In this document: one piece after another, positions 2,519 through 64,000 of the stretch
Numbering within the stretch: position 1 is the first letter of the stretch
Layout of the letters: every line of letters starts with the position of its first letter
From: Erysipelotrichaceae bacterium
Lineage (GTDB): Bacteria > Bacillota_I > Bacilli_A > RFN20 > CAG-449
Reading direction: 5' to 3'
Length of the DNA: 64,000 bases
Assembly (NCBI GenBank): GCA_015059095.1
Contig: SVBA01000009.1
Span: 3,228-67,227, forward strand
The notes under the pieces: generated by a model
The model's database searches: none
The model's input: only the letters and a program-made list of their open reading frames with translations
What the model was told of the DNA's origin: nothing
Position numbers and translations under genes: made by a program

Positions 2519-3927
2519 TTTTATTAAATTTAATGATCAATGGATTATATATCTATTTTTTAATTTCTATTTTAATTAGTCAATATTATAATATCAAAAG
2601 ATTTTTAAAGGTAATCTTTTTTAATTTTCTAAAAAAAGAAAATTTAATTTTATTTGCTTGTTCCTCTTTGAGCTTTTGTTTTTATTTTGTTAGTAAATAT
2701 TTATTTTATTTAGTCTCATTTTGGTTTTTAGTTATTTTCTTTTTTATTAATAAACCGATTATTTTTAAATTTACTAGAAGAAATATATTACTATATATAG
2801 TTTCATTTTTATTAGGAGGATTAATATTAAGTTTTACTACATTAGGTGCCTTATTATCATTATTAATTGGATACTATTTATTATTGCCTTTTGAATTCTT
2901 AAATAACAAAAGATATAAAAGAAAAGCAAAAGAAAAGTTGGAGTCTTTAGATATAAAAGTAATTGGAATTACAGGAAGTTATGGAAAAACAACATTTAAA
3001 AATATGCTTTACCATGTATTAAAAACTACATTTAATGTAAGTATGCCGAAAGGAAATATTAATACTCCTTTAGGGATATGTAAATTTATTAATAATTCAT
3101 TAAAAGATAATGTAGAAGTATTGTTATTAGAATTAGGAATAGATGAAGTAAAAGGGATGAAAAAGTTTAAAGATTTTCTTTCGTTAGATATTGGAGTAAT
3201 TACTAGTATTGGAGAAAATCATTTATCAACATTTAAAAGTATTGAAAATACTAAGAAAGCAAAATTAAAAATAAGTGAATTACTAAAAAAAGACGGAAAA
3301 TTATATTTAAATAAAGATTCATTTTATTTAAAAAATATTAGTCTAAAAGAAAATTATGAATATTTTTCTAATGAGGAATATGTAGAAAAAGAAATTACAA
3401 TTGAAGGAGTTAATATAACATATAATGATAAAGAAATAAGAGTTCCTTTGTATGGAAGTTATGTATATTCTTATATAAATGGAATAATTAAAATAAGTGA
3501 GTTTTTAGGTATAAATAAGGATTTTATTGCATTGGGATTAAGCGAAATAAAACCTATAGATAGAAGGTTACAATTATTAAAATATAAAGATGGATATATT
3601 ATTAATGATTCTTATAATATTAATTTATCTGGAGTAAAGGAATCACTTACTTTATTAAAAGGATTATCTGGAAGTAAAGTAGTTGTTCTTGGAGGAATTA
3701 TCGAACAAGGAAAGTATTACTATTTAAACAATGTAAGACTATCAAATTTGTTAAGCGGTATGGAAGTTATATTTGTAGGTAGTAATAATCATCCACTTAT
3801 TAGCAATCATAATTTTTCAAAACTTTTTATAACTTCTTCTCTTTCTCAAGCATATAAATTAATTGAAGAAAATAATTATAAAAATGTTCTTCTATTGGCG
3901 AAATCTGAAGATATATTTTTAAAGTGA
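2512..3927 (+). CDS. murF: Mur-ligase family protein, MurF-like (UDP-MurNAc-tripeptide D-Ala-D-Ala ligase), with an N-terminal 4-TM domain replacing the canonical N-domain
   Basis: P-loop GITGSYGKTT at about residue 152. C-terminal NDSYNINL matches the MurF DDSYNANP motif, and a VVLGG...G region follows. It sits immediately upstream of ddl. The first 130 residues are four hydrophobic helices. Confidence 0.6.
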   Translation: MVVLLNLMINGLYIYFLISILISQYYNIKRFLKVIFFNFLKKENLILFACSSLSFCFYFVSKYLFYLVSFWFLVIFFFINKPIIFKFTRRNILLYIVSFLLGGLILSFTTLGALLSLLIGYYLLLPFEFLNNKRYKRKAKEKLESLDIKVIGITGSYGKTTFKNMLYHVLKTTFNVSMPKGNINTPLGICKFINNSLKDNVEVLLLELGIDEVKGMKKFKDFLSLDIGVITSIGENHLSTFKSIENTKKAKLKISELLKKDGKLYLNKDSFYLKNISLKENYEYFSNEEYVEKEITIEGVNITYNDKEIRVPLYGSYVYSYINGIIKISEFLGINKDFIALGLSEIKPIDRRLQLLKYKDGYIINDSYNINLSGVKESLTLLKGLSGSKVVVLGGIIEQGKYYYLNNVRLSNLLSGMEVIFVGSNNHPLISNHNFSKLFITSSLSQAYKLIEENNYKNVLLLAKSEDIFLK

Positions 3928-3934
3928 GGTATAT

Positions 3935-5035
3935 ATGAAAAGAATAGTTTTAGTGTATGGAGGTAGTTCTACAGAAAGTGAAATTTCTATTTTGACTGCT
4001 TTAAAAACTTATAAAGAATTAATGAAAGTTAATAAAAATGTTAGTTTAGTTTATTTGGATCATGATGGAAATTTTTATACTGGGAAAGAATTAGTAAATT
4101 TAGAATCTTATTCTTTAAAAAAGAATTTTAAAATAGTTAATTTCAAAAAGAAAAATAATAAGAGTTATTATACTTATCATTTTAAAAAAGTATATTTTGA
4201 TTTGGTTCTAATTTTAGGACATGGAAAGAATGTTGAAGATGGCACATTATCTTCTTATTTTGAAATTTTAAAGATTCCGTATTTATATGATGATTTGTCA
4301 AATGTCAGTTTATTTCAAGATAAGATAAAAACTAAATTATTATTAAAGAATTTTGGTATTAATCAAACAAAGTTTACATATCTGCATAAGCATCAATATG
4401 AAAATTATGATTATGATAAATTAGAACTAAATTATCCTTTAATTACAAAACCTTCTAGACTTGGATCTTCTATTGGAATAAAAAAAGTGAATAATTTAAA
4501 GGAATTAAAAGAAGGATTGATTAGAGGTTTTATGTATGATGAAACAGTGTTAATTGAAGAATTTATTGATAATAAAATTGAATATAATATTGCTATATTA
4601 GGTTATCAAGATAAAATTATTGTTTCTGATATAGAGGAAGTAAATCAAAATAATCAAGTATTATCATTCTATGATAAATATGACTATTCAAAAGGAAATG
4701 AAAAAAGGATAATTAAACCAAAAATTGTTTCTTCAATTAAAGATGAAATGATTGAAACTAGTAGATTTGTGTTTAATGAATGCAATTTATGTGGGTTGTA
4801 TCGTTTTGATTTTATTTTTGATATAGAAAGTAATAAATTATATTTAAATGAAATAAATACTTTGCCTGGTTCTTTAGCTTATTATTTATTCGAATCTAAA
4901 GGAATAAAAATGGTAGACTTAATATTGATGTACATTGATATTCTTTCTTTGAAAAATAAAAATAGGTCACACTTATTGACTACTTTTCAAGAAGGATTTG
5001 TTTCTAATGTTGATTTAGATAAGCTAAAAAAATAA
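3935..5035 (+). CDS. ddl: D-alanine--D-alanine ligase
   Basis: N-terminal IVLVYGGSSTESEIS (Ddl N-domain) and ATP-grasp features, with a C-terminal LNEINTLPG region. GGT RBS. Confidence 0.8.
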   Translation: MKRIVLVYGGSSTESEISILTALKTYKELMKVNKNVSLVYLDHDGNFYTGKELVNLESYSLKKNFKIVNFKKKNNKSYYTYHFKKVYFDLVLILGHGKNVEDGTLSSYFEILKIPYLYDDLSNVSLFQDKIKTKLLLKNFGINQTKFTYLHKHQYENYDYDKLELNYPLITKPSRLGSSIGIKKVNNLKELKEGLIRGFMYDETVLIEEFIDNKIEYNIAILGYQDKIIVSDIEEVNQNNQVLSFYDKYDYSKGNEKRIIKPKIVSSIKDEMIETSRFVFNECNLCGLYRFDFIFDIESNKLYLNEINTLPGSLAYYLFESKGIKMVDLILMYIDILSLKNKNRSHLLTTFQEGFVSNVDLDKLKK

Positions 5036-5122
5036 ATATGTCTTTTGTAAGCGATAAAAATGTGATAAACTACTATTATGAAAATTAATTATTAATTTTC
5101 CTAATATTAGGAGGTAAATATT

Positions 5123-5824
5123 ATGTCAACACCACACAATAGTGCAAAAATGGGTGATTTTGCAGAAACAGTCTTATTACCAGGGGACCCTTTAAGAGCT
5201 AAATTTATCGCTGAAAACTTTTTAACAGATGTTGTTCAAGTCAATGGCGTTAGAAATATGTTTGGCTATACTGGCTATTATAAAGGTAAAAAAGTATCTG
5301 TAATGGGTTCAGGTATGGGAATGCCTTCAATCGGTATTTATTGTTATGAATTATATGCTTTCTATGGAGTAAAAACTATTATTAGAGTTGGCTCATGTGG
5401 TGCATATGTTCCAGAATGTAAATTATACGATATCATTATTGCTCAAGGTGCATGTACAAACTCTAATTGGGCACATCAATATGGCTTGCCAGGTACATAT
5501 TCTGCAATTGCTGATTTTGAAACATTAAAGAAAGCTTATGATGTATGCCAAGAAAAAGGTTATAGAACACACGTAGGTAATATTCTTTCTAGTGATATCT
5601 TCTATAATGATCAACCAGAAGTTTGGCAAAAATGGGCAAAAATGGGGTGCTTAGGTGTAGAAATGGAAAGTTATGCTTTATATGCTACTGCCGCTTCATT
5701 AGGAAAAAAAGCATTATGTATTTTAACAGTTTCTGATAGTTTAGTTTCAAAAGAAGAAACAACTGCAGAAGAAAGACAAACAAGTTTCAAACAAATGATG
5801 GAAGTTGCTTTAGAAGTAGCTTAG
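5123..5824 (+). CDS. deoD: purine nucleoside phosphorylase, DeoD type
   Basis: MSTPHNSAKMGDFAETVLLPGDPLRAKFIAE...SVMGSGMGMPS...RVGSCGA matches the E. coli DeoD start almost residue for residue. AGGAGG RBS. Confidence 0.9.
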   Translation: MSTPHNSAKMGDFAETVLLPGDPLRAKFIAENFLTDVVQVNGVRNMFGYTGYYKGKKVSVMGSGMGMPSIGIYCYELYAFYGVKTIIRVGSCGAYVPECKLYDIIIAQGACTNSNWAHQYGLPGTYSAIADFETLKKAYDVCQEKGYRTHVGNILSSDIFYNDQPEVWQKWAKMGCLGVEMESYALYATAASLGKKALCILTVSDSLVSKEETTAEERQTSFKQMMEVALEVA

Positions 5825-6549: not shown

Positions 6550-6789
6550 TTAATCTCTATGATGAGAATCAAATACTTTATCTCTTCTAGATAAATCTAC
6601 AAATAATAATAAGATATTGATGATTGCAGCGATAGCAATAATAACATAAATTACTCTAGCGCCCATATTTAATCCACCTGTGATTGTTGTTACTAAGTCA
6701 AAATCGAATAGACCTACTAATCCCCAGTTGATACCACCAATAATTGTTAAGACTAAACAGATCTTATGTACATAATTCATAGTTTGCAT
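6550..6789 (-). CDS. DUF378 small membrane protein
   Basis: GGINWGLVGLF motif and two TM helices, typical of DUF378 (YuzA-like). Confidence 0.7.
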   Translation of the reverse strand: MQTMNYVHKICLVLTIIGGINWGLVGLFDFDLVTTITGGLNMGARVIYVIIAIAAIINILLLFVDLSRRDKVFDSHHRD

Positions 6790-6875
6790 CTCCTTTTATT
6801 TTTATTATGTGTAAAAGATTATTTTTTAATACATATTTTATTTATTCTTTTCATATTGTTTATTGAGGTGGCTAT

Positions 6876-7877
6876 ATGGTTAAGAAAATTATTGCAGGAA
6901 TTCTTGTTTTAGCGATTATTGTACTCGCTGGTTTTAAAATCTTCTATAAAGGAGATGATGTGTCTAAGAAACTAGAGTCTTTAGGTGAAAATCTAACAAT
7001 GTATCATACAGAAGCAACAATGGATATTGAAACTAAAGATGAAGTGAGATCTTTTTATGTAACAGTTGATTATAAACTTGATAATGATAACGATTATTTT
7101 AGAATCTCATTATTAGATAAAAATATTAATCAAGAACAAATAATGTTGAGAAATGAAGAAGGTGTGTATGTATTAACACCAAAATTAAATCAAGTTTATC
7201 AATTTAAAGGTGATTATCCTTTAAATAGTCCTAAACCTTATTTATATCATTCATTAATCTCTTCGTTTAAAGAAAAAGATACTAATGTTGAAAAATTAAA
7301 CGATGGATATTTAATTTCTTATGATTGTGAATATGAGAATTCTCCTTCATGGAAAAAGCAAGATGTGAAATTATCTCAAGATTTAAAACCTGTATGGGTG
7401 AATATCTATGATGAAAGTAATAATGTTGTTGTCGAAATTAATTTTGCTAAAGTAGATTTTTCTCCTACATATTCTGAAGATCATTTTAGTGTCAATAAGA
7501 ATATGGAAACTTCTAGAAAAGAAGTAATTTCTTCAAGTGGTGAAGTAGAATTGCCTTATCTTCCAGAAGTGAGCGTATCTTCAACTTTAAAAGAACAAAC
7601 TGAAGCAACAGTTAATGGAGAAACAGTGTATATTTTAACTTATGAAGGAAGCAAAGAATTTACTATTACTCAAAGATTGTTAGAAGATTCAGAAGAAATA
7701 TTATTTGCTCAAGTAAGTGGAAGTATTGTTGAATTACCACTAGGTATTGGATATTATAATCAACAAAACTTACTATTTATACATAATGGAGTTGAATATA
7801 GAATCTACTCGGATTCATTAAGCGTTAATGAAATGATTGAAGTATTAGATTCAATGGATGTTGTAATAGAAAAATAG
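6876..7877 (+). CDS. membrane-anchored LolA-like/DUF4367-like protein (hypothetical)
   Basis: N-terminal TM anchor followed by a beta-rich domain. The family assignment is tentative. GAGGTGG RBS. Confidence 0.3.
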   Translation: MVKKIIAGILVLAIIVLAGFKIFYKGDDVSKKLESLGENLTMYHTEATMDIETKDEVRSFYVTVDYKLDNDNDYFRISLLDKNINQEQIMLRNEEGVYVLTPKLNQVYQFKGDYPLNSPKPYLYHSLISSFKEKDTNVEKLNDGYLISYDCEYENSPSWKKQDVKLSQDLKPVWVNIYDESNNVVVEINFAKVDFSPTYSEDHFSVNKNMETSRKEVISSSGEVELPYLPEVSVSSTLKEQTEATVNGETVYILTYEGSKEFTITQRLLEDSEEILFAQVSGSIVELPLGIGYYNQQNLLFIHNGVEYRIYSDSLSVNEMIEVLDSMDVVIEK

Positions 7878-9780: not shown

Positions 9781-12735
9781 ATGAAATACTTTTTAAATAC
9801 TACTAATTATTATAATTTTGAAGTTATTAATGATAAAACTATTAGGCCACGTTCATATTTTATTCCTTATAAGGACAGTAATTTATTAAATATTACTTCA
9901 CTTATGGAAGAAAGATATTCTTCTAATTTAGTAAAAGTATTAAATGGAGACTGGAATTTTAAATTTTATAAAAATCCTAACTATTTAGATATTAATTTAG
10001 ATACTGAAAAAGTAGATTTTGATGTTATTGATGTTCCTTCGGTGTGGCAATATCGTCATTACGATAAACCGTTTTATTTAAATTGTAGATATCAATTTCC
10101 TTGTAAGCCTCCTATGATTCCTACTTTAAATAAAGTAGGAAAGTGTTTTAATGCTTTTGGTAATGGAAAGTTTTTTCATTATATGAAACCATTAGAAGAT
10201 GAATATAATTTTGTGGGTATATATCAAAAAGAAATTCAAATTAATAAATTAAAAAATAAGATGTATATTTTAACATTTCTAGGAGTTGCTTCTTGCTTTG
10301 ATTTATATATTAATGGAAAATATGTAGGTTATGCAGAAGGATCTCATAATATGCATGAGTTTGATTGTAGCAATTTTTTTATCGATGGAAATAATGAAAT
10401 TGTTGTAGTAGTTAGAAGATGGTGTAATGGATCATATTTAGAGTGTCAAGATATGTTCCGAAATAATGGTATTTTTAGAGACGTATTATTAAAAGAAGAA
10501 GAATATATCTTTGATTATTCTTTAAATACTAGAAAAAGAAATGGAAAATATGATTTAGAAGTTAAAGTGAATTTACGTAAAGAAGCAAAGTTAGTAGTTT
10601 CTTTGCTTGGTATAAAAAATGAATTTACTTTAGAAAAAAAGAAAAATCATATTATTAGTTTTAAGGATTTAGATGTAAAAGAATGGAACGCCGAAGAACC
10701 AAATACTTATATTTTACTTATTCAAGTTATGAGTGATGGTGTGAATGTAGAATCTATTAGGAAATATATTGGTTTTAAGGAAGTGAAAATTAAAGAAGAT
10801 AAATTCTATTTAAATGGTAAACTTATTAAGATTAAAGGCGTTAATCATCATGATACAAGTCCTAAAAATGGGTATTATATGACTCCAAAAGAAATAGAAA
10901 AAGATATATTGCTTTGTAAAGAATATAATGTAAATACGATAAGGACTTCTCATTATCCTAGTGATCCTTTATTGTTAGATTTGGCCACATTTTATGGAAT
11001 ATATATAATTGATGAAGCAGATTTAGAGACTCATGGTTGTCAAGTTGGAACATTAATGAATTTTAATTTGATTTCAAAAGATCCAAAGTGGGAACGTCAT
11101 TATTTAGATAGGGCAATACATCTATTTGAAAGAGATAAAAATAATAGTTGTATTATCATGTGGAGTCTAGGTAATGAAGCTGGTGGATATCAAAATCAAG
11201 ATAAAATGTATGAGTATTTTAAAAAGAATTCTCCTCTACCAGTTCATTATGAAAGTGTAGTACATTCAAAAAGGAAGGCATACGATGTTGGTTCGCAAAT
11301 GTATCCTTCTTTAGAAATGGTAGAAAGTGTAGGATTACATAAATGTAAGATAAAAGAATTTAATGACCGTCCGTATATATTATGCGAGTACGCCCATGCT
11401 ATGGGAGTAGGACCAGGAGCATTAAAAGAATATATGGATTTATTCTATAAGTATGACAATTTAATGGGTGGCTGTATTTGGGAAATGGTTGACCATTCTT
11501 ATTTAGATGAAAAAGGTGTATATAGATATGGGGGAGATCATAATGAATATATGCACGATGGTAACTTCTGTGTAGATGGTTTGTTCTATCCTGATAGAAC
11601 TCCTTCAACAGGAGCAAAGCTAATGAAGTATGAATATCGTCCATTAATCATTACTCATATTAAAGAAAATATATTTGAATTATTTAATACAAACGCTTTT
11701 ATTGATGCTAGTGAATATGTTGTAAGATTTAAAGTTAAAAATGAGGAGATTACTAGGAGTTTTTCCCTAAAAAGTCTATCAAAAATGAAATTCGAGTTAC
11801 CTATTAATTATAATGAAGAAAATATAATTTATATTAAAGTATATTATAAAGATAATTTGGTTTCAGAAGAGTCATTATTAATTAATTATCAAGTAGAACA
11901 AGAAGAGAAGTTATCTTCTCATGCTAAATTAGAAAATAATCAATTAATCTTTAGTGATGGAAAGATATATTTTGAAAATGAAAAATTAATCATCAAATAT
12001 CTAAATGAAAAAATAGAATATGCTGATTATGGTACTTTATTATTTAGAGCACCTACTGACAATGATTTTAATACTTTTGGATTTAAGTTATTTCATGATA
12101 ACGTGAATCAAGAAAATAAAATATCTTCTATTACTTATCAAGAGGGTAAGATTCACTTGACGACATTAATTAATAGTGGAAAAGATGTATTTATAAATGA
12201 AGAAGAGATTGAAGTATCTTCAGAAGGAAAAATTGTTTTTACTTCTATTTTAAAAACTAAGAAAGCTAAAAATGATTTATTTAGATTTGCAAAATCATTT
12301 AAATTAAGTAAAGAATTCAATAAAGTTACTTATTTTGGTAGAAACGAAGAATCTTATTGTGATATGAAAAATTATGCTTTAGTGCAAGAAGATTCTAGAT
12401 TAATAAAAAATATGGTTGAACCAAATATTCGTCCTCAAGAAAGTGGTAATAGATGTGATTGTAAATACGCTATCATTTCCAATGATTCTATTTATGTAAA
12501 ATTTAAAGCATTGGAAGATAGTTTTGAATTGGGAGCAAAGCCATATTCTGACAAAGAATTATTATCTATGAAACATAGAGATGATGAAACTAATAGTGGA
12601 ACATATATCAATATTTGTAAATTTAATAGAGGTATTGGTACAGGAGCATGCGGCCCAATAACTTTGGATAAATACAAATATTATCCAAATAAAGAATACA
12701 AATTGAAATTTGTAATTGAGTTAGGAAGAAAATAA
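9781..12735 (+). CDS. lacZ: beta-galactosidase, GH2 LacZ type
   Basis: GVNHHD, WSLGNEAGG and ILCEYAHAMGVGPG motifs match the LacZ catalytic region. 984 aa. Confidence 0.85.
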   Translation: MKYFLNTTNYYNFEVINDKTIRPRSYFIPYKDSNLLNITSLMEERYSSNLVKVLNGDWNFKFYKNPNYLDINLDTEKVDFDVIDVPSVWQYRHYDKPFYLNCRYQFPCKPPMIPTLNKVGKCFNAFGNGKFFHYMKPLEDEYNFVGIYQKEIQINKLKNKMYILTFLGVASCFDLYINGKYVGYAEGSHNMHEFDCSNFFIDGNNEIVVVVRRWCNGSYLECQDMFRNNGIFRDVLLKEEEYIFDYSLNTRKRNGKYDLEVKVNLRKEAKLVVSLLGIKNEFTLEKKKNHIISFKDLDVKEWNAEEPNTYILLIQVMSDGVNVESIRKYIGFKEVKIKEDKFYLNGKLIKIKGVNHHDTSPKNGYYMTPKEIEKDILLCKEYNVNTIRTSHYPSDPLLLDLATFYGIYIIDEADLETHGCQVGTLMNFNLISKDPKWERHYLDRAIHLFERDKNNSCIIMWSLGNEAGGYQNQDKMYEYFKKNSPLPVHYESVVHSKRKAYDVGSQMYPSLEMVESVGLHKCKIKEFNDRPYILCEYAHAMGVGPGALKEYMDLFYKYDNLMGGCIWEMVDHSYLDEKGVYRYGGDHNEYMHDGNFCVDGLFYPDRTPSTGAKLMKYEYRPLIITHIKENIFELFNTNAFIDASEYVVRFKVKNEEITRSFSLKSLSKMKFELPINYNEENIIYIKVYYKDNLVSEESLLINYQVEQEEKLSSHAKLENNQLIFSDGKIYFENEKLIIKYLNEKIEYADYGTLLFRAPTDNDFNTFGFKLFHDNVNQENKISSITYQEGKIHLTTLINSGKDVFINEEEIEVSSEGKIVFTSILKTKKAKNDLFRFAKSFKLSKEFNKVTYFGRNEESYCDMKNYALVQEDSRLIKNMVEPNIRPQESGNRCDCKYAIISNDSIYVKFKALEDSFELGAKPYSDKELLSMKHRDDETNSGTYINICKFNRGIGTGACGPITLDKYKYYPNKEYKLKFVIELGRK

Positions 12736-12736
12736 T

Positions 12737-13414
12737 ATGAGAGATATTTTACTAGTAGATTTAGATGATACATTATTAGATTTTTCTAAAGCAGAAAAAG
12801 AGGCTTTAGAAAAAGTTTTAGTAGCTTATGGTATAGATAATAATGAAGAAAATCATCAAAAATATTATAAAATTAATAAAGATTATTGGAAAAAATATGA
12901 ACTACATCAAATAAAACGAGAATCTCTTTTAGGAAAAAGATTTGAAGATTTCTTTGAATTATTTAATAAAAAAGTCGATGGAGATAAGGTGAATGAATTG
13001 TATTTCTCTTATTTATCTGAAGGAGCATATTTAATTGATAATGCCTTAGAATTTTGTGAAAAATGTAAAAAAGACGGATACAAATTAATAATTGTTTCAA
13101 ATGGTGTAGGAAGTGTACAAAAACCTAGAATAGAAAAATCTGGATTAAAAAAATACTTTGATAGAATTTATCTTTCTGAAGAAGTAGGTTATAATAAACC
13201 AGATATAGAGTTTTATACAAGAGTTTTGCTTGATTATTATCAACAAGAAAGAATGGTAATGATTGGCGATAGTTTATCGAGCGATATTCAAGGTGGTATT
13301 AACTTTAATATTCCTACGATTTGGTACAATCCTAATCATCTAAAAAGTGATTTGCCGAATTTTGAAGTAGATAATTTAATGGATATATTTAAAATATTGG
13401 AGGAAAATTTATGA
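12737..13414 (+). CDS. HAD-IA family hydrolase (YjjG-like nucleotidase/phosphatase)
   Basis: Motif [12 protein letters not shown], then SNG, K and [11 protein letters not shown] motifs. Starts 2 nt after the lacZ stop. Confidence 0.7.
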
Positions 13415-13788
13415 AAATAGCTTTAATTGCCCATGATAAGAAAAAACAAGATATGATTGATTTATGCGTTAAATATAGAGATGTATTGGATGGTCATGAT
13501 TTATACGCTACAGGAACAACAGGTACTATGGTAATGGGAGAAACAGGTCTTAAAATTATTAGAATGAAGTCTGGTCCTTTAGGAGGAGACCAACAAATTG
13601 GTTCAATGGTTGCAGAAAAGAATTTAGATATGATTATTTTCTTAAGAGATCCTTTGACTGCACAACCTCATGAACCAGATGTTACTGCTTTATTAAGATT
13701 AAGTGATGTTATGAACATTCCTTTAGCGACTAATGTTAGTAGTGCAACAATTATGCTTGAAGATTTAAAATTAAGAAAACAATTGTAA
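13411..13788 (+). CDS. mgsA: methylglyoxal synthase
   Basis: [12 protein letters not shown]...YATGTTG...[10 protein letters not shown] is the MgsA signature. Overlaps the HAD gene by 4 nt. Confidence 0.85.
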
Positions 13789-58534: not shown

Positions 58535-58611
58535 GGTCTATTGGAGAAGCGGCTTAACTCGACGCCCTCTCAAGGCGTTATTCACGGGTTCGAACCCCGT
58601 ATAGATCACCA
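58535..58611 (+). tRNA. tRNA with CUC anticodon (tRNA-Glu-like), CCA encoded; marks the left edge of the island
   Basis: Hand-folded cloverleaf: acceptor GGTCTAT/ATAGATC, D-loop containing GG, anticodon stem ACGCC/GGCGT with loop CTCTCAA, T-arm ACGGG-TTCGAAC-CCCGT, discriminator A, then CCA. Confidence 0.55.
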
Positions 58612-58620
58612 GAATAGTAG

Positions 58621-58690
58621 AACAGGTTTGATACAATGCTATCAAGCCTTTTTTTGTGCTTTTATAAGGGTTCAAATCTCACCCGTAAGG
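58621..58690 (+). repeat. repeat module copy 1: TTGATAC-type terminator hairpin + T-run + tRNA T-arm-like segment
   Basis: GGTTTGATAcaatgcTATCAAGCC, then T7, then GCTTTTATAAGGGTTCAAATCTCACCCGTA. The last part resembles the 3' half (T-arm) of the adjacent tRNA (GGGTTCGAACCCCGTA). Confidence 0.5.
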
Positions 58691-58754
58691 AATTACTTAA
58701 ATGATTATTAATGATTTAAGTGTATAAATTGTTATTTTTAGTGTGTCTATTCGA

Positions 58755-58870
58755 TAAACGATTTAATAGAGTGGTTTCAAAAATTTAAGGACGGTTTCAT
58801 TATTAAACGATTATGTTAAGGTGGTTTCAAAAATAGTTCAAAGGTAGTTTCACACTATTAAACGATTATA
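58755..58870 (+). repeat. iteron array L: about 4 tandem 31-bp units of GGTGGTTTCA-N-TATTAAACGATTAT
   Basis: AAACGATT occurs 3 times and G(G/T)(T/A)GTTTCA occurs 4 times at about 31-bp spacing. Confidence 0.6.
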
Positions 58871-58929
58871 CAAATTCATAGTAAATACAAAGAAAATATG
58901 ATATAATAAATCAAAGGAAGTGGCTATAT

Positions 58930-59730
58930 ATGTTTGAGAGTTTGAAAATAATAAGTGAGTGTAAAAGAACACTTAAAAATCATAATATTAAATATAATGA
59001 AGACTTTAAAATATATAAGAAATTTGGATTAATTCATTGTCAAGTTGACGATTGGAGAGGTCCTGTTGAAGTTGATGGTTTTCCAGTTTTGACAATTAAA
59101 TCAGCCACTTTATTACTTATTGAATCTTGTGCATTTGATCATTATTTGTTGGAGGAAAAAAATAAAAGAGAACAGCTAATTAAAGAATATCCTTTAGGAT
59201 ATGGAGAATATGAAACGAGAAAATATCTTTTTGAAAATATACTAAAAGTCATAAAAGGTTATGATGAAAAACACTATGTTAGTTTAATTAATAAATATAC
59301 AAAGTATTTAAATATGAATAGGAAAACAAAGCAAAGATGGTCATACAATAAATCAACAGAAAAGTTTGAAATTTATCCTATTGCTTCATATTCAGCGGTG
59401 ATTATATCTAAAGCAATAAATACTATTAGAATTTATAATCAAGATCCTTGTGGTGGAAGATTAGATGATAATATTTATAAATTAATATCTGAAAATTTTG
59501 AAGATGGATTATTTAAATTTTCTTTTACTAATAACGGAGAAGACAGATTTTATTTAGAAATTTATAATCCGCAATATGCAGATGGTTCAGACAATTACAT
59601 TATGATTTATAAGGCTGATAAAGTAGTATGGTCGTATATGCCATTTGAAAATAGCGAGTCAAAACAAGAAAGAATATTTATTTTTGATGGAACAAAATTA
59701 AATATTGTTGGTGAAATTAATTTTAAATAA
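58930..59730 (+). CDS. hypothetical protein (266 aa), island gene
   Basis: Soluble protein with no motif I can recognise. AAGGAAG RBS. It is the first gene after iteron array L. Confidence 0.4.
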   Translation: MFESLKIISECKRTLKNHNIKYNEDFKIYKKFGLIHCQVDDWRGPVEVDGFPVLTIKSATLLLIESCAFDHYLLEEKNKREQLIKEYPLGYGEYETRKYLFENILKVIKGYDEKHYVSLINKYTKYLNMNRKTKQRWSYNKSTEKFEIYPIASYSAVIISKAINTIRIYNQDPCGGRLDDNIYKLISENFEDGLFKFSFTNNGEDRFYLEIYNPQYADGSDNYIMIYKADKVVWSYMPFENSESKQERIFIFDGTKLNIVGEINFK

Positions 59731-59770
59731 AGGATTAAAAAAATATCAACGAAAGGATAAAATTATAATT

Positions 59771-60256
59771 ATGATCAATAAGAAAGGTATAATTGGTGAA
59801 TTTATGGAAGAAAATGTAACATTGATTGGCTATAATTCTAAAAAACAGCCTTATATATTTTTAGGTGCAGCTATCTTGGTATTTATTATTGCTATACTGT
59901 GTATATTTTTTGCTGAAGGAAATAAAAAATTTGCATCAATTGCATTGTTTCTTATAGGGATAGGACTCATGATTGGCTTTTTTTATTTGTTAAAATTACC
60001 TCATATAGGTATTAAAGTAATAGATGACAAATACTTATACTTTTATGATAAAGATAATGTGAAAATTATTGATATTAGTAATATTGAAAAAGTAAATTAT
60101 TGGCCAGCAAATTATGGCCTTAAGATTGTTCTTTTCACTTCAAAAGGTAGTGAATATTTTACTTATTTATTATCTAATATCAAAGATGTAAAAAAACATT
60201 TATTATATTTATTTGAAAAAGAAAATATTAAGGTAATAAATAGGTATAGTAAGTAG
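59771..60256 (+). CDS. small membrane protein (2 TM + cytoplasmic domain), island gene
   Basis: The track ORF 59705..60256 begins with TTG. The first ATG (MINKKG) is at 59771. The protein has two TM helices and a roughly 100-aa C-terminal domain. Confidence 0.4.
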   Translation: MINKKGIIGEFMEENVTLIGYNSKKQPYIFLGAAILVFIIAILCIFFAEGNKKFASIALFLIGIGLMIGFFYLLKLPHIGIKVIDDKYLYFYDKDNVKIIDISNIEKVNYWPANYGLKIVLFTSKGSEYFTYLLSNIKDVKKHLLYLFEKENIKVINRYSK

Positions 60257-60411
60257 TATTGAATTATTCTCGATATTAAGTATTGGTGAAAAAATTGCAC
60301 TTGAAGTATTATAGAAAAGAAATGATGGTCTTAGTAAAAATGGCAAAATATTTTCTTTAAAGATGAAAGTATGTATTATAAAAAATTAAGTCCTATGAAA
60401 TAGGATTAAAA

Positions 60412-60585
60412 ATGAAATTAATAAGAGAAGCTAATGATGTAAGTAAAACAGAATTAGCCATTAGATTAAAAGTCAATCGAAAGACAGTTATATTATTAGA
60501 AAAAGGTGATAGGTTACCTTCATTAGAATATATCTATAACTTTTGTAAAATGTTTGATGTTTTGATTGAATTAATGTTAAATTAA
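60412..60585 (+). CDS. small XRE-family HTH regulator (57 aa)
   Basis: Hand translation gives MKLIREANDVSKTELAIRLKVNRKTVILLEKGDRLPSLEYIYNFCKMFDVLIELMLN, a Cro/C1-type HTH. Missing from the track because it is under 60 aa. A perfect palindrome TCCTATgaaATAGGA lies at 60391-60405, overlapping its RBS. Confidence 0.55.
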   Translation: MKLIREANDVSKTELAIRLKVNRKTVILLEKGDRLPSLEYIYNFCKMFDVLIELMLN

Positions 60586-60600
60586 AGGGGGTTATTTTCA

Positions 60601-61494
60601 ATGAAGTTAAATATTGTTGTTTTTATTTTATTTGTAATAATTTATGTTTTGACTATAGTTTTAACAATATTTAAAATCAAAGATATACACAAGAATCCTG
60701 AAAAATATGAGCATGAAGATTTAATTAATGAAACAAATAGAAAATATGCTAACAAATGGGATAAATTTTCTAGTTTTTTTAAATCATTATCTCATCAATA
60801 TGGAATGATAAATATGTTATTATGTTTTGTCTTTGTTGCTTTAGGAACAATATTTATCTTTTCCATAAATAAAGCGTATAGTCAAGGTGAAGGATATATT
60901 ACCTTAGGAACGCAACTAATTGGTTCAATTGGCCTATTATTTTTAGGGATTCCATTATGTATGATAATTATTCCATTGGCAATCAAAAAACCATTCTTTG
61001 TTGTTACAACGTTAGATATGTTTAATACAGACCATAGACCAAAAATATATTTTAAAGGATATATATTATTTTTAGTATTTTTTATAATAACATTTCCATT
61101 TATAACTCTGTCTTGTAACAATTACGTTTATTATGATTCAAATGGCATTTATTCAAATAGATATTTTCAGATTGAAGAAAAGTTTACTTCATATGAAGAA
61201 ATAACAAAGATTGAAATTTATTTAACCTATAAAGAAGAAAAAATATCTGGAGTACATTATGATGTGTATTTAAATGACGGAAGATTTAATATTAATTCAC
61301 CTAGCGGTAAAAAGAAGATATTTGCTGATAATACCTTTACAATACATAATTATGTTATAAATAAAAGTAATTGTGAATTTATTATTACTCCATTAACTGA
61401 AGATGATATTAATTTTTTAGTGGAAAACTATACTAACGATGATTATCAAAAAATTTTAGAAGTCTTTAATGCTGATCAATTAAAGGAGAATTAA
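60601..61494 (+). CDS. polytopic membrane protein (297 aa), island gene
   Basis: AAGGGGG RBS 8 nt upstream and at least five hydrophobic helices. Immediately downstream of the small XRE gene. Confidence 0.4.
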   Translation: MKLNIVVFILFVIIYVLTIVLTIFKIKDIHKNPEKYEHEDLINETNRKYANKWDKFSSFFKSLSHQYGMINMLLCFVFVALGTIFIFSINKAYSQGEGYITLGTQLIGSIGLLFLGIPLCMIIIPLAIKKPFFVVTTLDMFNTDHRPKIYFKGYILFLVFFIITFPFITLSCNNYVYYDSNGIYSNRYFQIEEKFTSYEEITKIEIYLTYKEEKISGVHYDVYLNDGRFNINSPSGKKKIFADNTFTIHNYVINKSNCEFIITPLTEDDINFLVENYTNDDYQKILEVFNADQLKEN

Positions 61495-61495
61495 A

Positions 61496-61984
61496 ATGAA
61501 AATAGGAATTATTAAGGAAAAGAAAGTTGGGTTACTAATATCTACTATTATTTGTCTTATATGTTGTATTTTTCCATTTTTTACTAAATTAGAGTTTATT
61601 GACAAAATATTTATATTCGTTATGCTGTTAATAGCATATTTAATTATATTATTATGTTTTCTAATATCGATGGAATGGTACATAATAGACATAGAATCTA
61701 TTACAGTTAAAAATGTTTTTGGAACAGTAAATAAAGTTTATTATAAAGATGTTAAATATTCTTATGTTAAACGATTACCTGTTTTTACTAGAGATAAAGG
61801 AATCTCTTGCTTATTATTTAATGATGGTAGAAAAGAATGCAGTTTCTTCACAGGTAATAATATAGATAATCATAAAAAATATATTATTAGAATTCCATAT
61901 ACTCAAGAAGTTGTGGATTATTTCAAAAAAAATAATATTGAGTTAAATAATAATTCGATTTTTAAAACTATAATAAATGAATAA
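61496..61984 (+). CDS. small membrane protein (2 TM + cytoplasmic domain), island gene
   Basis: AAGGAG RBS. Same architecture as 59771..60256, with a weak shared motif after TM2 (IIDIESITV versus IIDISNIEKV). Confidence 0.4.
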   Translation: MKIGIIKEKKVGLLISTIICLICCIFPFFTKLEFIDKIFIFVMLLIAYLIILLCFLISMEWYIIDIESITVKNVFGTVNKVYYKDVKYSYVKRLPVFTRDKGISCLLFNDGRKECSFFTGNNIDNHKKYIIRIPYTQEVVDYFKKNNIELNNNSIFKTIINE

Positions 61985-61985
61985 A

Positions 61986-62140
61986 ACAAACGATTTGCTA
62001 GGTGGTTTCATTATTAAACGATTTAGGCAGGTAGTTTCAAATTATTAAACGATTACAACTGATTTTCAGTAATTATTAAACGATATGGTCAGGTGGTTTC
62101 AAATTATTAAACGATTATGGCAACTATTAAACGATTTATT
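61986..62140 (+). repeat. iteron array R: about 4.5 tandem 31-bp units GGTGGTTTCA(A/T)ATTATTAAACGATT
   Basis: TATTAAACGAT appears 5 times at spacings of about 31, 31, 31 and 17 bp. Same unit and same orientation as array L. Confidence 0.65.
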
Positions 62141-62257
62141 AAAATTGTATTAATAGTGTCATACCTTGCCATTTAAGAAGATTAGATTTGATACAATATA
62201 TCAAGCCTTTTTTATTTGCTTTTATAGAGGTTCAAGTTCCACCCGTCTTGTTAAAAG
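62141..62257 (+). repeat. repeat module copy 2 (extended): AAAATTGT...TTGCCATTTAA + TTGATAC hairpin + T-run + GGTTCAAGTTCCACCCGT
   Basis: Aligns with copy 1 (hairpin, T-run, T-arm-like part) and over a longer stretch with copy 3. Confidence 0.5.
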
Positions 62258-62423
62258 ATGATATTGTTTCATTTTTATAACTGAAGTTTAGTGACTGATT
62301 TAATTAAGGAACTGCAGAGATTTTATAACTTTATAACGATTTGATAACAATTTAACGATTACCTAACTTTTTAAGACATCCTCCTAGATTGCACTAAGTT
62401 ATGGTGTTGCACCGCATTCAAGT

Positions 62424-62600
62424 ACCTATGGGCGGTAATAGATAGCTGTACGCAGATTATGGCAATTGATCAGGTGAGACTCCTACCCAACGAAAGTGGA
62501 GTCTTTTTATTATCTCGCATTGATGGATATTTTAATTATTTTTTAATATAATTTATATAGTGAAAATCGACTGATAAATTAGAATTTGACGGTCAAATCC
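62424..62600 (+). repeat. about 180-bp cassette A: conserved 60-nt segment + terminator hairpin + extended -10 promoter
   Basis: ACCTATGGGCGGTAATAGATAGCTGTACGCAGATTATGGCA..., then GAGACTCC...GGAGTC followed by T5, then TTGATG...TAATATAAT. About 88% identical to cassette B at 63475. Confidence 0.55.
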
Positions 62601-62691
62601 ACTCTACCACTGGTTAATTTCCTCACTAAACCAATGGTAGGTGTATTTTATAGAAAATAATTATTACACTAGATACGAAAGGAGATAACTT

Positions 62692-63294
62692 ATGAATCAA
62701 ATTAAAATAGGAAGATTTATTGCTGAATGTAGAAAAAAAGAAAACTTAACCCAAATGCAGTTAGCTGAAAAGTTAAACATCACAGACAAAGCAGTATCTA
62801 AGTGGGAAAGAGGTATAGCAATGCCTGATGCTTCTTTAATGCTTGATCTATGTAGTATTCTTGGTATTAGTGTAAATGAATTATTAAGTGGGGAGAAAAT
62901 TGATGTGGAAAATAATAATAACGAAAAGCTTTTGCTTGATATGGCAAAAGAATTAGAAAACAAAAACAAAACTATTTGGTCATCTATGTGGGCACTTATG
63001 ACTGTAAGTTTGATTACTTTAATTGCAGGTATTTTTATTGCTGCATTTTTGATACCAGAAGGTATCTGGCAACTTGTAACAATTCTTGGTGTTTGTGTTG
63101 TGTTTTTAATACCTTGCATCTACGCTGTAAAATTAGAAGTTAGTGTGGGAGCATATAAATGTAAAAACTGTGGTTATGAAATTGTTCCTACATATAAAGA
63201 AGCAATGATGTCGATGCATAGAGGAACAACTCGTCATTTATTGTGCCCTAAATGCAACAAACGTACTTGGTGTAAAAAAGTAATAAGGAAATAA
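62692..63294 (+). CDS. XRE-family HTH regulator fused to 2 TM helices and a C-terminal zinc-ribbon
   Basis: N-terminal HTH_3 (RFIAECRKKENLTQMQLAEKLNITDKAVSKWERG), two hydrophobic helices, then CKNCGYEIVP...CPKCNKRTWC. AAGGAG RBS. Confidence 0.55.
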   Translation: MNQIKIGRFIAECRKKENLTQMQLAEKLNITDKAVSKWERGIAMPDASLMLDLCSILGISVNELLSGEKIDVENNNNEKLLLDMAKELENKNKTIWSSMWALMTVSLITLIAGIFIAAFLIPEGIWQLVTILGVCVVFLIPCIYAVKLEVSVGAYKCKNCGYEIVPTYKEAMMSMHRGTTRHLLCPKCNKRTWCKKVIRK

Positions 63295-63359
63295 GATTTC
63301 AAATTGAGAGAGCGTCAAATTCCTATTTATCGTTTAGAAATAGGGGTATGCAATTGTAT

Positions 63360-63455
63360 TAAAATTGTGTAACGTTGCCATTTAAAATTACCAATCTTGA
63401 TACAATAAAAAGTATCAAGATTTTTTATTTTTATGGTGTTCAAGTTCAACTCCTT
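63360..63455 (+). repeat. repeat module copy 3: AAAATTGTGTAACGTTGCCATTTAA + perfect 11-bp TTGATAC hairpin + T-run + GGTGTTCAAGTTCAACTCC
   Basis: AATCTTGATACaataaaaaGTATCAAGATT followed by T6. Aligns with copies 1 and 2. Confidence 0.5.
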
Positions 63456-63474
63456 GATATACACAGCATTTAAA

Positions 63475-63640
63475 TACCTATGGACGGTAATAGATAGCTG
63501 TACGCAGATTATGGCAGTTAATCAAGTGAGGCTCCTACTCAATGAAAGTGGAGTCTTTTTATTATCTCGCATTGGTGGACATTTTAGTTGTTTTTTGATA
63601 TAATTTATATGGTGAAAATTGACTGATAAATTAGAATTTG
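63475..63640 (+). repeat. about 170-bp cassette B (near-identical to cassette A)
   Basis: ACCTATGGACGGTAATAGATAGCTGTACGCAGATTATGGCA..., then GAGGCTCC...GGAGTC followed by T5, then TTGGTG...TGATATAAT (extended -10). It ends 10 nt before the next ATG. Confidence 0.55.
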
Positions 63641-63650
63641 TAGGTGTGTT

Positions 63651-64000
63651 TATGAATAAAGAGTGGTCAGAATTAAATAAAGAAGTTAAGATTTTATTGA
63701 ATAAAAAAACAACCTTTAAAGATGGAATTAATAAACTCATTGCATTAAGAAGTTTACTTTTTAATGAATGGAAAAAAGCTATGAGTGATTTATCTATTGA
63801 AGATTATTCGAATCAACCATTTTTTAATAGAGATGGATACGAATCTAAAACGATCGCATATTCTATTTTTCACGTGTTTAGAATTGAAGATATTGTATTA
63901 AATACATTGATAAATAATAGACAACAAATTTTTATTCGAGATGATTATCAATATAAGATGAATTCATCTATTATTACAACGGGAAATGAATTAAAAGGCG
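63651..64000 (+). CDS. DinB_2/DUF664-like protein (3'-truncated at window edge)
   Basis: Frame is open from ATG 63651 to the window end. The segment IAYSIFHVFRIEDIVLNTLI resembles the DinB_2 helical bundle. Confidence 0.4.

Follow-up and report, generated by a model that had tools for sequence, protein, structure and literature searches.

What gave rise to the patchwork of repeats and orphan genes behind the tRNA-Glu(CUC) gene near the right edge of the 64,000-nucleotide stretch of Erysipelotrichaceae bacterium DNA considered here (contig SVBA01000009.1 of assembly GCA_015059095.1; hereafter, the window)? A first-pass annotation, made from the letters of the window, had described three copies of one module, two direct arrays of “iterons,” a duplicated cassette, and a set of orphan genes to the right of the tRNA, and all of these features are indeed present at the places indicated. 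According to our analysis, this island is likely a tandem array of five recombinase-less units (E1–E5) that extends from 58612 to ~66500 at the 3′ end of the tRNA-Glu(CUC) gene and derives from temperate phages. The island was analyzed in a 73-kb composite, in which the window, itself identical to a part of a 79-kb Joint Genome Institute (JGI) metagenome contig, was extended to the equivalent of 73.3 kb by the locus L022 (comparison loci are referred to by L numbers). The suspicion that the island continues past 64000 was justified: further modules lie at ~65.77 kb and at ~66.44 kb, and at ~65.85 kb there is part of a third cassette.

The key to the modules is the right-end sequence, hereafter END. 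One metagenome scan with the degenerate END core yielded 22 stretches, one of which (L033) is a chance match, so that ~21 were retained. These contigs have only END in common with the window; the upstream cargo differs each time and is always co-oriented with END, and, when the scanned stretches are aligned in register, the likeness between loci ends sharply at ..GCCA. Contigs carrying END span 24–43% G + C (GC) content and share it at 95–100% identity. END starts with AAATTCCTATTTATCGTTTAGAAATAG right behind the cargo stop codon, the hairpin stem being kept by different sequences in L041, L035, and L036; one to five B boxes ((A/G)GGGTATGCAAA) ~21 nt apart follow, often together with TTTAACGATTAC A boxes, and the last B box runs into the core GGGTATGCAATTGTATTAAAATTGTGTAACGTTGCCA. 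The general form of END is a series of boxes every ~21–31 nt and a core TTGTATTAAAAT..GT..GCCA. The left end (LE) is built of 12–15 nt, a rho-independent terminator of variable sequence and, often, TTTTATAGGGGTTCAAGTCYCACC, with or without A boxes.

Read against these sequences, each module corresponds to a junction of the right END of one element with the LE of the next one. Modules 2 and 3 of the first-pass annotation are END|LE junctions and module 1 is a tRNA|LE junction; in total, the array holds four internal END|LE junctions and one initial tRNA|LE junction, all on the + strand. Every unit retains both att-flanking ends of a single family of integrating elements, and between these lie one to five cargo genes pointing in the same direction. 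The repeat had been interpreted as the decayed attachment (att) scar of a tRNA T-arm; it is instead an element right end (..GCCA) joined to the next left end. The box sequence changes between elements (GGGTATGCAA, GGTGGTTTCA, GGGTGCGAA, GGGGTGCAA, GGGGTGTCG, GGTGTACGCA, GGTATGCCAA), and the core stays recognizable. All repeat types are confined to 58.6–66.5 kb of the composite and none was found in the other 65 kb examined; a genome-wide intergenic repeat family, named earlier as the outcome that would speak against an island, is not what is seen here.

The attachment target of the array is the tRNA-Glu(CUC) gene, with the array beginning right behind ..CACCA: the tRNA end ..GATCACCA is joined in the window to the LE start GAATAGTAG. 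Other loci show the same arrangement at tRNA-Leu(CAA), which is directly followed by LE in L043 and L024. The LE in L043 is similar to that of E3, and in L024 the E2 LE sequence itself lies directly behind the CCA. The opposite joint is also represented. In the human gut contig L056, tRNA-Leu(CAA), downstream of the arginyl-tRNA synthetase (ArgRS) gene, ends ..CCCCTACCA and continues as TTTTTTGAAATCTATAGGTCTTC..; the same native trailer (TTTTTTGAAATCT..) that lies there directly 3′ of the CCA stands behind END in L032, L041, L047, and L065. This succession of END and native tRNA-Leu trailer has the form expected of an attR. The sequence common to tRNA ends and ENDs is CA/CCA only, and the crossover would be placed within or next to CCA. 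The earlier proposal of successive insertions at a tRNA 3′ end agrees well with these joints and with END lying behind unrelated cargo in ~21 contigs.

The candidate enzymes were found beside END in other genomes. A four-gene module comprising a ~128-aa HTH_38/sigma-70 region 4-like protein (phrog_2308, E = 6e-39), a ~90-aa SHOCT_2 protein (phrog_2996), and two serine recombinases of ~430 and ~530 aa is present in L065, L066, L067, L069, and L070. In L065, the order is the helix-turn-helix (HTH) gene, the SHOCT gene, genes for 427-aa and 537-aa serine recombinases, the cassette terminator, END, and the native tRNA-Leu trailer. The segment 62374–62508 of the window is 95% identical to the sequence directly 3′ of the second serine recombinase gene in L065, and therefore the cassette is composed of the recombinase gene 3′ flank and the promoter of the first cargo gene. 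Of the earlier “terminator–promoter cassette,” the duplication stands (62410–62593 vs. 63462–63645, 184 nt, 90% identity), and its nature has to be revised in this way. In L066, a promoter and four cargo genes come after the module, and then an END that has E1-type boxes (..GTGTGGTTTCAACTATTAAACGAT..) and terminates in ..TTTGCCA, so the E1 iterons are tied to the same kind of element; an A–B unit also lies upstream of the HTH gene. In L067, a metagenome-assembled genome (MAG) of Acholeplasma sp., an END with GGTGTACGCA boxes ends ..TCCA|TTTAAGAAG. A truncated large serine recombinase gene, a cassette copy, a cargo gene, and END succeed each other in L029, where, through an in-frame deletion, the HTH gene continues directly into the region encoding the C-terminus of the second recombinase; hence, internal deletions of the recombinase region do occur. 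Full-length relatives of this truncated recombinase lie in the four-gene module without exception. The best NCBIfam match of both recombinases is CcrB, at 131–134 bits vs. the cut-off of 900, which makes them, on sequence criteria, distant CcrB relatives and not orthologues.

In the island, the picture is different. The tblastn search with the serine recombinases found none in the 73-kb composite, and a crude regular-expression test for the tyrosine-recombinase box II was negative over the same 73 kb. Neither PHROGs nor Pfam nor NCBIfam matched any island protein to a structural or replication phage gene, the downstream genes being small accessory ones, and the family scans, PHROGs and NCBIfam included, showed no Rep-like protein among the island genes. 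The integrase, recombinase, or Rep gene sought downstream of 64000 is not among the genes found there. The units are phage derivatives, not intact prophages, and the earlier alternatives of elements mobilized in trans or remnants gain substance from the existence of recombinase-carrying relatives and the lack of any such gene in the surrounding 73 kb.

The parent family could be traced from these relatives. In L066 and L070, tail (phrog_6779, Dit_N) and holin (phrog_13712, E = 4e-28) genes lie upstream of the four-gene module. The best match of the second recombinase among GenBank phages, at 53% identity, is Anaeroplasmataceae phage NatCom_34063 (PV036447.1, Ca. Heliusvirales), which carries the same four-gene module at its extreme right end. 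Its last 110 nt are an END, with three GGGGTGTCG boxes 21–22 nt apart, the last of them running into TTGTATTAAAATAGTTGTGTAAATACA, and a core ..TTGTATTAAAAT..GTGTAAATACA. Its first 250 nt are an LE, namely, CACCA, TTAGAGTACATTAG, a TTGATAC-type terminator TCTTGATAC..GTGTCAAGA with a T-run, TTTTTAGGGG, three TTAGAACGATTAC boxes, the counterpart of the E1 left array, and one inverted B box. Alignments demonstrate that these termini are homologous to the ENDs and LEs of the window: the E1 LE aligns with the left terminus (CACCA|TTAGAGTACATTAGTCTTGATAC..), and the E2 END with the right terminus as well as with the END located 3′ of the L065 recombinase genes. The “iterons” are subterminal box arrays that also occur at the termini of a phage genome record, and they do not speak for a plasmid-type replicon.

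The complete-genome record of PV036447.1 (L071 7596–7706; L072 1–250) is bounded precisely by the junction of LE and END and starts with CACCA, the last five tRNA bases; therefore, the record seems to be cut at the attachment site. Ca. Heliusvirales have been described as predominantly temperate (97.9% of complete genomes), with the recombinase called a DNA invertase and tRNAs, integrases, or attachment sites not mentioned (PMC11283538). The “DNA invertase” of PV036447.1 is probably one half of a paired serine integrase. Temperate phages that resemble Ca. Heliusvirales and have Acholeplasma/Anaeroplasma-like Bacilli as hosts make up the autonomous part of the family. The integration module of these phages is situated at the extreme right end of the prophage, beside END, with accessory genes between the recombinase genes and END; the cargo of the units occupies this same phage moron position, between the integrase genes and attR, and has its own promoters. 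The comparative data identify in this way both the parent family of the units and the candidate enzyme.

Taken together, the array could have arisen as follows. The recombinase pair would join the phage attP (END|LE) to attB at the ..CCA end of the tRNA. Each arrival would enter at the tRNA and push the older units outward, so that newer units would lie next to it. Internal deletions would then strip the phage body and the recombinase genes, leaving LE, the 3′ flank of the second recombinase gene (the cassette), cargo, and END. Recent activity is suggested by the close identity of the END cores and by the many short units found in other contigs, and erosion by the decayed ends of E4 and E5.

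Several observations weigh against a phage-derived array. As a target, tRNA-Glu(CUC) is known from the window and from the CACCA start of the phage record, all other junctions being at tRNA-Leu(CAA), and the attR-type joint of END with a native trailer is known from the relatives, not for tRNA-Glu. One of the two tRNA-Leu|LE junctions, L024, carries E2–E3 at 99.8% identity, with its three mismatches all in the first ~95 nt past the tRNA, and may be an assembly chimera; L043 is independent evidence. E1 has neither the cassette nor the palindromic leader described below, and its tie to a recombinase-bearing element is through one locus only (L066). Neither an unoccupied tRNA-Glu site nor a circular junction nor a product of excision was seen at this locus. 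Searches of IMG/VR with the exact 25-nt END core and with the cassette gave no match, nor did BLASTN searches of plasmid and phage collections with END; the link to phages came through the recombinase protein, not through the END DNA. Finally, large serine recombinases normally use minimal sites and need no accessory ones, which leaves the box arrays without an explanation; another protein could be involved, or another process, e.g., replication or regulation. Our guess is that a sequence-specific accessory protein would bind the boxes, perhaps the phrog_2308 HTH protein acting as a regulator or directionality factor; on a par with this, the boxes may have a role in replication or packaging.

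Possible, if rather doubtful, is the reading of the units as maintained recombinase-less mini-elements (satellite-like or cis-mobilizable-like) that a resident Heliusvirales-like phage excises, perhaps replicates, and moves in trans. It would account for the END cores of E2, E4, and E5, which are identical among themselves over 32–37 nt and 97–100% identical to the END beside intact recombinase genes, for the many units of one to five genes with intact ends and diverse cargo in other contigs (two ENDs are 1.7 kb apart in L044), for E2 with an identical 200-aa protein in three contexts (the other two are L024 and L025), and for the matched arrays retained at both ends of E1. The core identity, however, is also explicable by recent arrival or gene conversion. 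Moreover, there are signs of decay at some ends (END 4 has lost 1 nt, the trailer behind END 5 has degenerated, and the E1 LE matches that of E2 at only 82%), and neither a circular form nor an empty site nor a helper phage was seen in this genome fragment. An improbable alternative has the elements moved by a tyrosine integrase encoded elsewhere, with the boxes as arm-type sites and an incidental serine recombinase linkage. Tyrosine integrases classically act on att sites at a tRNA 3′ end that have direct repeats on both arms; serine integrases are usually without accessory sites, and a variable box sequence beside a constant core would fit as well. It would have to explain, however, why the serine recombinase pair lies directly beside END in five independent loci and one phage genome, while the loci read by eye show no tyrosine recombinase beside END or LE, and box II is missing from the 73 kb.

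Quite improbable, too, is integron-like gene capture, by which single genes inserted at the 18-bp palindromic leader GATAAATTAGAATTTAT would build operons like that of E3. The leader stands before five consecutive genes or junctions in the composite and before cargo genes in at least seven other loci, the END start (AAATTCCTATTTATC) resembles it, the GNAT, glyoxalase, and kinase cargo is akin to that of integron cassettes, and in L025 the E2 gene is joined to a different upstream gene 37 nt before its ATG. Yet this L025 junction has no leader motif, and the leader tends to lie just downstream of −10 boxes, where an operator or 5′-leader element would sit. The reading further lacks an IntI-type recombinase, an attC structure, and a GTTRRRY core. 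END sequences end ..GTAACGTTGCCA, and the direct box repeats do not follow the inverted-repeat design of attC (by reading of the sequence; no dedicated attC model was applied); an intI gene with attI is not present at the array head, which is the tRNA, within the limits of the crude box II pattern. It is hardly credible that the modules are species-wide terminator repeats of the REP/BOX kind that have nothing to do with mobile DNA, with the arrays serving to regulate a resident operon: each module does hold a functional-looking terminator, and the E1 promoter region begins shortly after the left array, but the modules are absent from the remainder of the composite, are common to contigs of widely differing GC content with unrelated genes at near-identity, and form the termini of a phage genome record.

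Two further candidates were rejected. The END core as a mimic of the tRNA 3′ half would offer a 5-bp stem with a 7-nt loop (CAATT-GTATTAA-AATTG), which is 2 nt out of the T-arm register, and relatives end ..ACACA or ..ATACA, not CCA. Tn7/Mu-like transposon ends, with several ~21-bp sites and a terminal CA, are contradicted by the lack of an inverted END copy in the array. As to an iteron-type origin, the family scans showed no initiator gene in the island, and the arrays are located at both element ends and at phage termini; an origin served in trans is still conceivable.

Coming back to the phage-derived array itself, its features are summarized in Table 1.

Table 1. Features of the array behind the tRNA-Glu(CUC) gene (window positions; positions given in kb lie in the composite).
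Feature	Position	Strand	Description
tRNA-Glu(CUC), encoded CCA	58535..58611	+	ARAGORN; Rfam tRNA, 56 bits
Unit E1	58612–62171	+	five orphan genes, own box type
LE of E1 (earlier module 1)	58612..58690	+	12-nt trailer, terminator hairpin 58624–58649 with T-run, T-arm-like segment GGGTTCAAATCTCACCCGT
Left subterminal box array of E1	58750..58870	+	A boxes (A/T)TAAACGATT, B boxes GGTGGTTTCA
266-aa soluble orphan, E1 cargo	58930..59730	+	no Pfam, PADLOC, PHROGs, or NCBIfam family
161-aa two-transmembrane (TM) protein, E1 cargo	59771..60256	+	from open reading frame (ORF) list; alternative TTG start 59705; family matches only sub-threshold
57-aa XRE-type HTH protein, E1 cargo	60412..60585	+	Pfam HTH_3, 27.6 bits vs. 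cut-off 23
297-aa polytopic membrane protein, E1 cargo	60601..61494	+	from ORF list; no family
162-aa two-TM protein, E1 cargo	61496..61984	+	from ORF list; no family
Right END of E1	61988..62171	+	A/B box array of 31-nt period, 61988–62135, and core AAAATTGTATTAATAGTGTCATACCTTGCCA; end at 62171
Unit E2	62172–63380	+	LE, A boxes, cassette, XRE-TM-Zn gene, END
LE of E2 (earlier module 2)	62172..62250	+	trailer TTTAAGAAGATTAG, terminator hairpin ~62187–62207, T-arm-like segment
Left-side A boxes of E2	62319..62374	+	TATAACGATT, TTTAACGATTAC; same boxes in END modules of other loci
Cassette copy 1	62374..62593	+	RNA-like motif and terminator 62385–62510, promoter-like site 62524–62552, palindromic leader GATAAATTAGAATTT 62573–62590
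200-aa protein with XRE HTH, two TM, and Cys4 ribbon, E2 cargo	62692..63294	+	Pfam HTH_3, E = 1.5e-13
Right END of E2	63317..63380	+	hairpin CCTATTTATCGTTTAGAAATAGG, then B box fused to core GGGTATGCAATTGTATTAAAATTGTGTAACGTTGCCA
Unit E3	63381 to ~65.8 kb	+	LE, cassette, four-gene operon, END
LE of E3 (earlier module 3)	63381..63461	+	terminator 63393–63422, T-arm-like segment GTGTTCAAGTTCAACTCC
Cassette copy 2	63462..63645	+	terminator, promoter 63576–63604, palindromic leader
216-aa gene, first of E3 cargo operon	63652..64000 (runs off window)	+	L022 and L001
Unit E4	~65.8 to 66.5 kb	+	142-aa gene
Unit E5	from ~66.5 kb	+	174-aa gene

In E1, the repeat is bipartite, with an A box ATTAAACGATT and a B box GGTGGTTTCA, and both arrays are direct and flank the five genes. 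The right array, with a period of 31 and 4.3 copies at 61988–62116 according to TRF, forms together with AAAATTGTATTAATAGTGTCATACCTTGCCA an END of a different box type, GGTGGTTTCA in place of the GGGTATGCAA of E2–E5; its ..TTGCCA end recurs behind the L066 prophage that carries two serine recombinases. The pattern ATTAAACGAT occurs nine times in the 64-kb window vs. 0.3 expected, and seven of these occurrences are within 58802–58866 and 62013–62135; for GGTGGTTTCAAA, four matches out of five fall in the arrays. The left array is placed immediately before the promoter region of E1. A search of IMG/VR with the iteron pattern gave single chance matches only.

The gene descriptions of the first-pass annotation hold for the most part, Pfam matches being found only for the 57-aa and 200-aa proteins. 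The “DinB_2-like” label has no Pfam match to support it for the part of the 216-aa gene in the window, and none is on record for the full product. The 266-aa protein has 26 homologues in Bacilli MAGs, in differing contexts, and travels in other genomes without the other four E1 genes; its AlphaFold2 model (mean predicted local distance difference test score 82.6) gave no informative fold match. The idea of a phage-exclusion or abortive-infection module finds no direct support in this, nor in the comparison with known anti-phage systems (PADLOC-DB v2), where only generic HTH/RmrA models match the HTH domains and the 266-aa and membrane proteins match none. All contigs with E1 show it in one and the same context. 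Contigs from three other samples (L003–L005) stop at 58618 (two) or 58676 (one), i.e., 7–65 nt past tRNA-Glu, and others read through; these stops look like an assembly-graph branch point at the att junction and are no proof of polymorphism. As for synteny at the species level, a scan of genome contigs with the product of the MFS gene, which together with a peptidase gene lies upstream of the tRNA at the head of the array, gave only an irrelevant Anaerolineales match.

Past 64000, the genes, all on the + strand, encode the 216-aa orphan, an AAA_18 kinase, GNAT and glyoxalase proteins, and proteins of 142, 174, and 69 aa, followed by MatE and ordinary genes; the modules there are END 4 (~65.77 kb) and END 5 (~66.44 kb), seen in L022 and L001. 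GC content is mixed: it is 22–25% in E1 and 28–30% in the flanks, with a maximum of 37% in the kinase gene of E3. The region holds five terminator-like sites vs. 0.9 expected, and two of the three module hairpins, which are of the TTGATAC type, score as intrinsic terminators. Rfam at E ≤ 1 gave nothing besides the tRNA at 56–64 kb. The promoter-like sites of the two cassette copies score 10 out of 12 (62524–62552) and 11 out of 12, with a TG extension (63576–63604).

The leader GATAAATTAGAATTTAT is an 18-bp near-palindrome found at 62573–62590 and 63625–63642, at positions 11608, 12135, and 12599 of L022, and also in L030, L031, L035, L036, L037, L048, and L066. It lies 10–25 nt upstream of cargo start codons, often just past the −10 box, and also between genes of one operon; in E3, the AAA_18 kinase, GNAT, and glyoxalase genes are each preceded by it. 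By its position, it could be an operator or leader element. Between cassette copy 1 and the XRE-TM-Zn gene, and absent from cassette copy 2, there is a 12-bp inverted repeat CTACCACTGGTT..AACCAATGGTAG (62596–62650), which may be the operator of the XRE-TM-Zn regulator.

Within the cassette, a conserved motif of ~75 nt (..GCACTAAGTTATGGTGTTGCACCGCATTCAAGTACCTATGGGCGGTAATAGATAGCTGTACGCA) precedes a GGCAA-loop hairpin, behind which the terminator lies (62395–62510 and 63470–63560 in the window; L065 4040–4165; L067 3120–3250), the site being 3′ of the second recombinase gene. In L067, both hairpin stems have a different sequence and yet pair (GATTA/TTGATC vs. TCTTGA/TCAAGA; GAGACTCC/GGAGTC vs. 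GACCTT/AAGGTC). The motif has no Rfam family, and the folding of a single copy was not significant (z = −0.73); the motif may represent either a small RNA or a 3′-untranslated region element. In L025 (1–600), the E2 gene is joined to a gene for a 169-aa kinase-like protein; the first ~330 nt of this contig, comparatively GC-rich by eye, might be structured, and the 600 nt showed no Rfam match at gathering thresholds.

The cargo next to END, named from the sequences, includes ANT(6)-like, ArsR-x-ArsC, HsdS-like, Fic/Doc-like, and radical-SAM proteins. In L039 (reverse complement, 12654–13535), an ANT(6)-like aminoglycoside nucleotidyltransferase gene lies directly upstream of END, in the cargo position; in L031 (reverse complement, 4330–5530), the same place is taken, beside IS3, by an operon of ArsR, a 189-aa protein, and ArsC. 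A Bacilli MAG with a 60%-identical homologue of the 266-aa protein (L064) has divergent END-like modules at 3400–3510, 4793–4875, and 7007–7080, with GGTATGCCAA or GGGGTGTGCAAAA boxes ~21 nt apart, cores that end ..TAATAACACA or ..ACATTCACA, and a terminator after each; therefore, the END family is broader than the scan pattern.

The tRNA-Leu(CAA) site has a history of its own. Past the native trailer in L056 (reverse complement of 6688–7083) and L065 (4440–4490), there are one to three reversed fragments of a tRNA 3′ half (..TGACCACGGACTCGAACC.., GGGATTCGAATG, GGGACTCGAACC), which may be scars of other elements at this site. In human-gut contigs (L034 6568–7170, L038 858–1346, L050–L057), the tRNA-Leu(CAA) islands by ArgRS contain a 200-aa resolvase-type serine recombinase, usually convergent with a small ORF for an HTH-plus-zinc-finger protein and with its own conserved ~250-nt upstream region. 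It has at least 8000 homologues at E ≤ 1e-30, 83–97% identical among the 120 matches listed. This small resolvase, which follows END in L034 and L038, was not accepted as the recombinase of the element, being very abundant, having its own upstream region, and occurring without END.

Among known systems, NatCom_34063 is the closest in its right-end genes (HTH, SHOCT-like, two large serine recombinases) and in its END and LE termini; the window units differ from it by having no structural, replication, or recombinase genes, by their box sequences, and by the direct orientation of the E1 arrays, the A/B unit of the phage being inverted between its ends. The markers of Ca. Heliusvirales (TerL, portal, major capsid protein, and replication proteins; PMC11283538) were not found among the island proteins. 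Staphylococcal cassette chromosome (SCC)/ccrAB islands and the Enterococcus cassette chromosome likewise have two large serine recombinases side by side, insert with site and orientation specificity at a single housekeeping gene (at its 3′ end), stack in tandem, and include many recombinase-less cargo units within the same end repeats, thought to be movable in trans (PMC6222049). Unlike in SCC, the recombinases here fall far below the CcrB cut-off, the target is tRNA-Glu(CUC)/tRNA-Leu(CAA) rather than rlmH (orfX), and the autonomous members are phages. To our knowledge, the subterminal box arrays have no counterpart in SCC. The ssrA islands of Dehalococcoides reportedly stand in tandem, with short direct repeats and a serine recombinase, and we know of no phage origin for them; they differ from the present array in target, host, and cargo. 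They are horizontally acquired and integrated at ssrA, a small-RNA gene, in a site-specific manner (PMC3146451).

The tycheposons of Prochlorococcus share insertion by tRNA genes, outward displacement of older elements, degenerated remnants, adaptive or defence cargo, and, in some cases, a likeness to phage satellites (bioRxiv 10.1101/2020.12.28.424599). However, a tyrosine recombinase is used by 910 out of 937 tycheposons, and partial tRNAs make up the tycheposon repeats (bioRxiv 10.1101/2020.12.28.424599), whereas here a serine recombinase pair is linked, the repeat has only ..CCA in common with the tRNA, and the host lineage is another one. The cis-mobilizable elements (CIMEs) of streptococcal ICE/IME families and their accretion at tRNA or other att sites are similar in the attL/attR-type flanks, the lack of recombination genes, the origin by deletion, the tandem arrangement with related elements, and the potential for excision in trans; they derive from conjugative or mobilizable elements, mostly with tyrosine integrases (PMC5704250), as opposed to phage-derived units with cargo in the moron position. 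In sum, the region is a resolved case of a familiar island category, a tRNA-anchored stack of prophage-derived units, and no new system.

Its interest lies in the attachment-site anatomy of an abundant gut phage order, in the unexplained box arrays, and in the possible phage-dependent mini-elements. The puzzling repeat patchwork is explained as the footprint of one phage family, and we have found no earlier concrete account of how the attachment sites of a Ca. Heliusvirales-type phage are built. The present one suggests that tRNA 3′ ends are targets of such phages and that their “DNA invertase” genes encode a paired serine integrase. The region from the integrase genes to attR appears as a busy exchange point for accessory genes, which outlasts the loss of the phage in the form of small units, and the END and LE signatures can be used to delimit such prophages and islands in metagenome bins.

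One may go further, into what we consider unlikely, and regard the units as living miniature hitch-hikers on Heliusvirales-type phages, whose kept ends and boxes would allow the paired serine recombinases of a helper, perhaps together with a protein that binds the boxes, to cut them out, copy them, and insert them anew at tRNA ends. If this is true, Acholeplasma/Anaeroplasma-like bacteria of the gut and rumen would have a system of cassette exchange driven by phages; its cargo would include resistance genes (an ANT(6)-like one and an ars operon), Fic/Doc, restriction components, and orphan membrane proteins, and the palindromic leader would be a common control or joining site. If the mini-elements are still mobilizable, they would be a simple, recombinase-less vehicle of gene flow in little-studied, uncultured Bacilli/Mollicutes-like bacteria of the gut and rumen.

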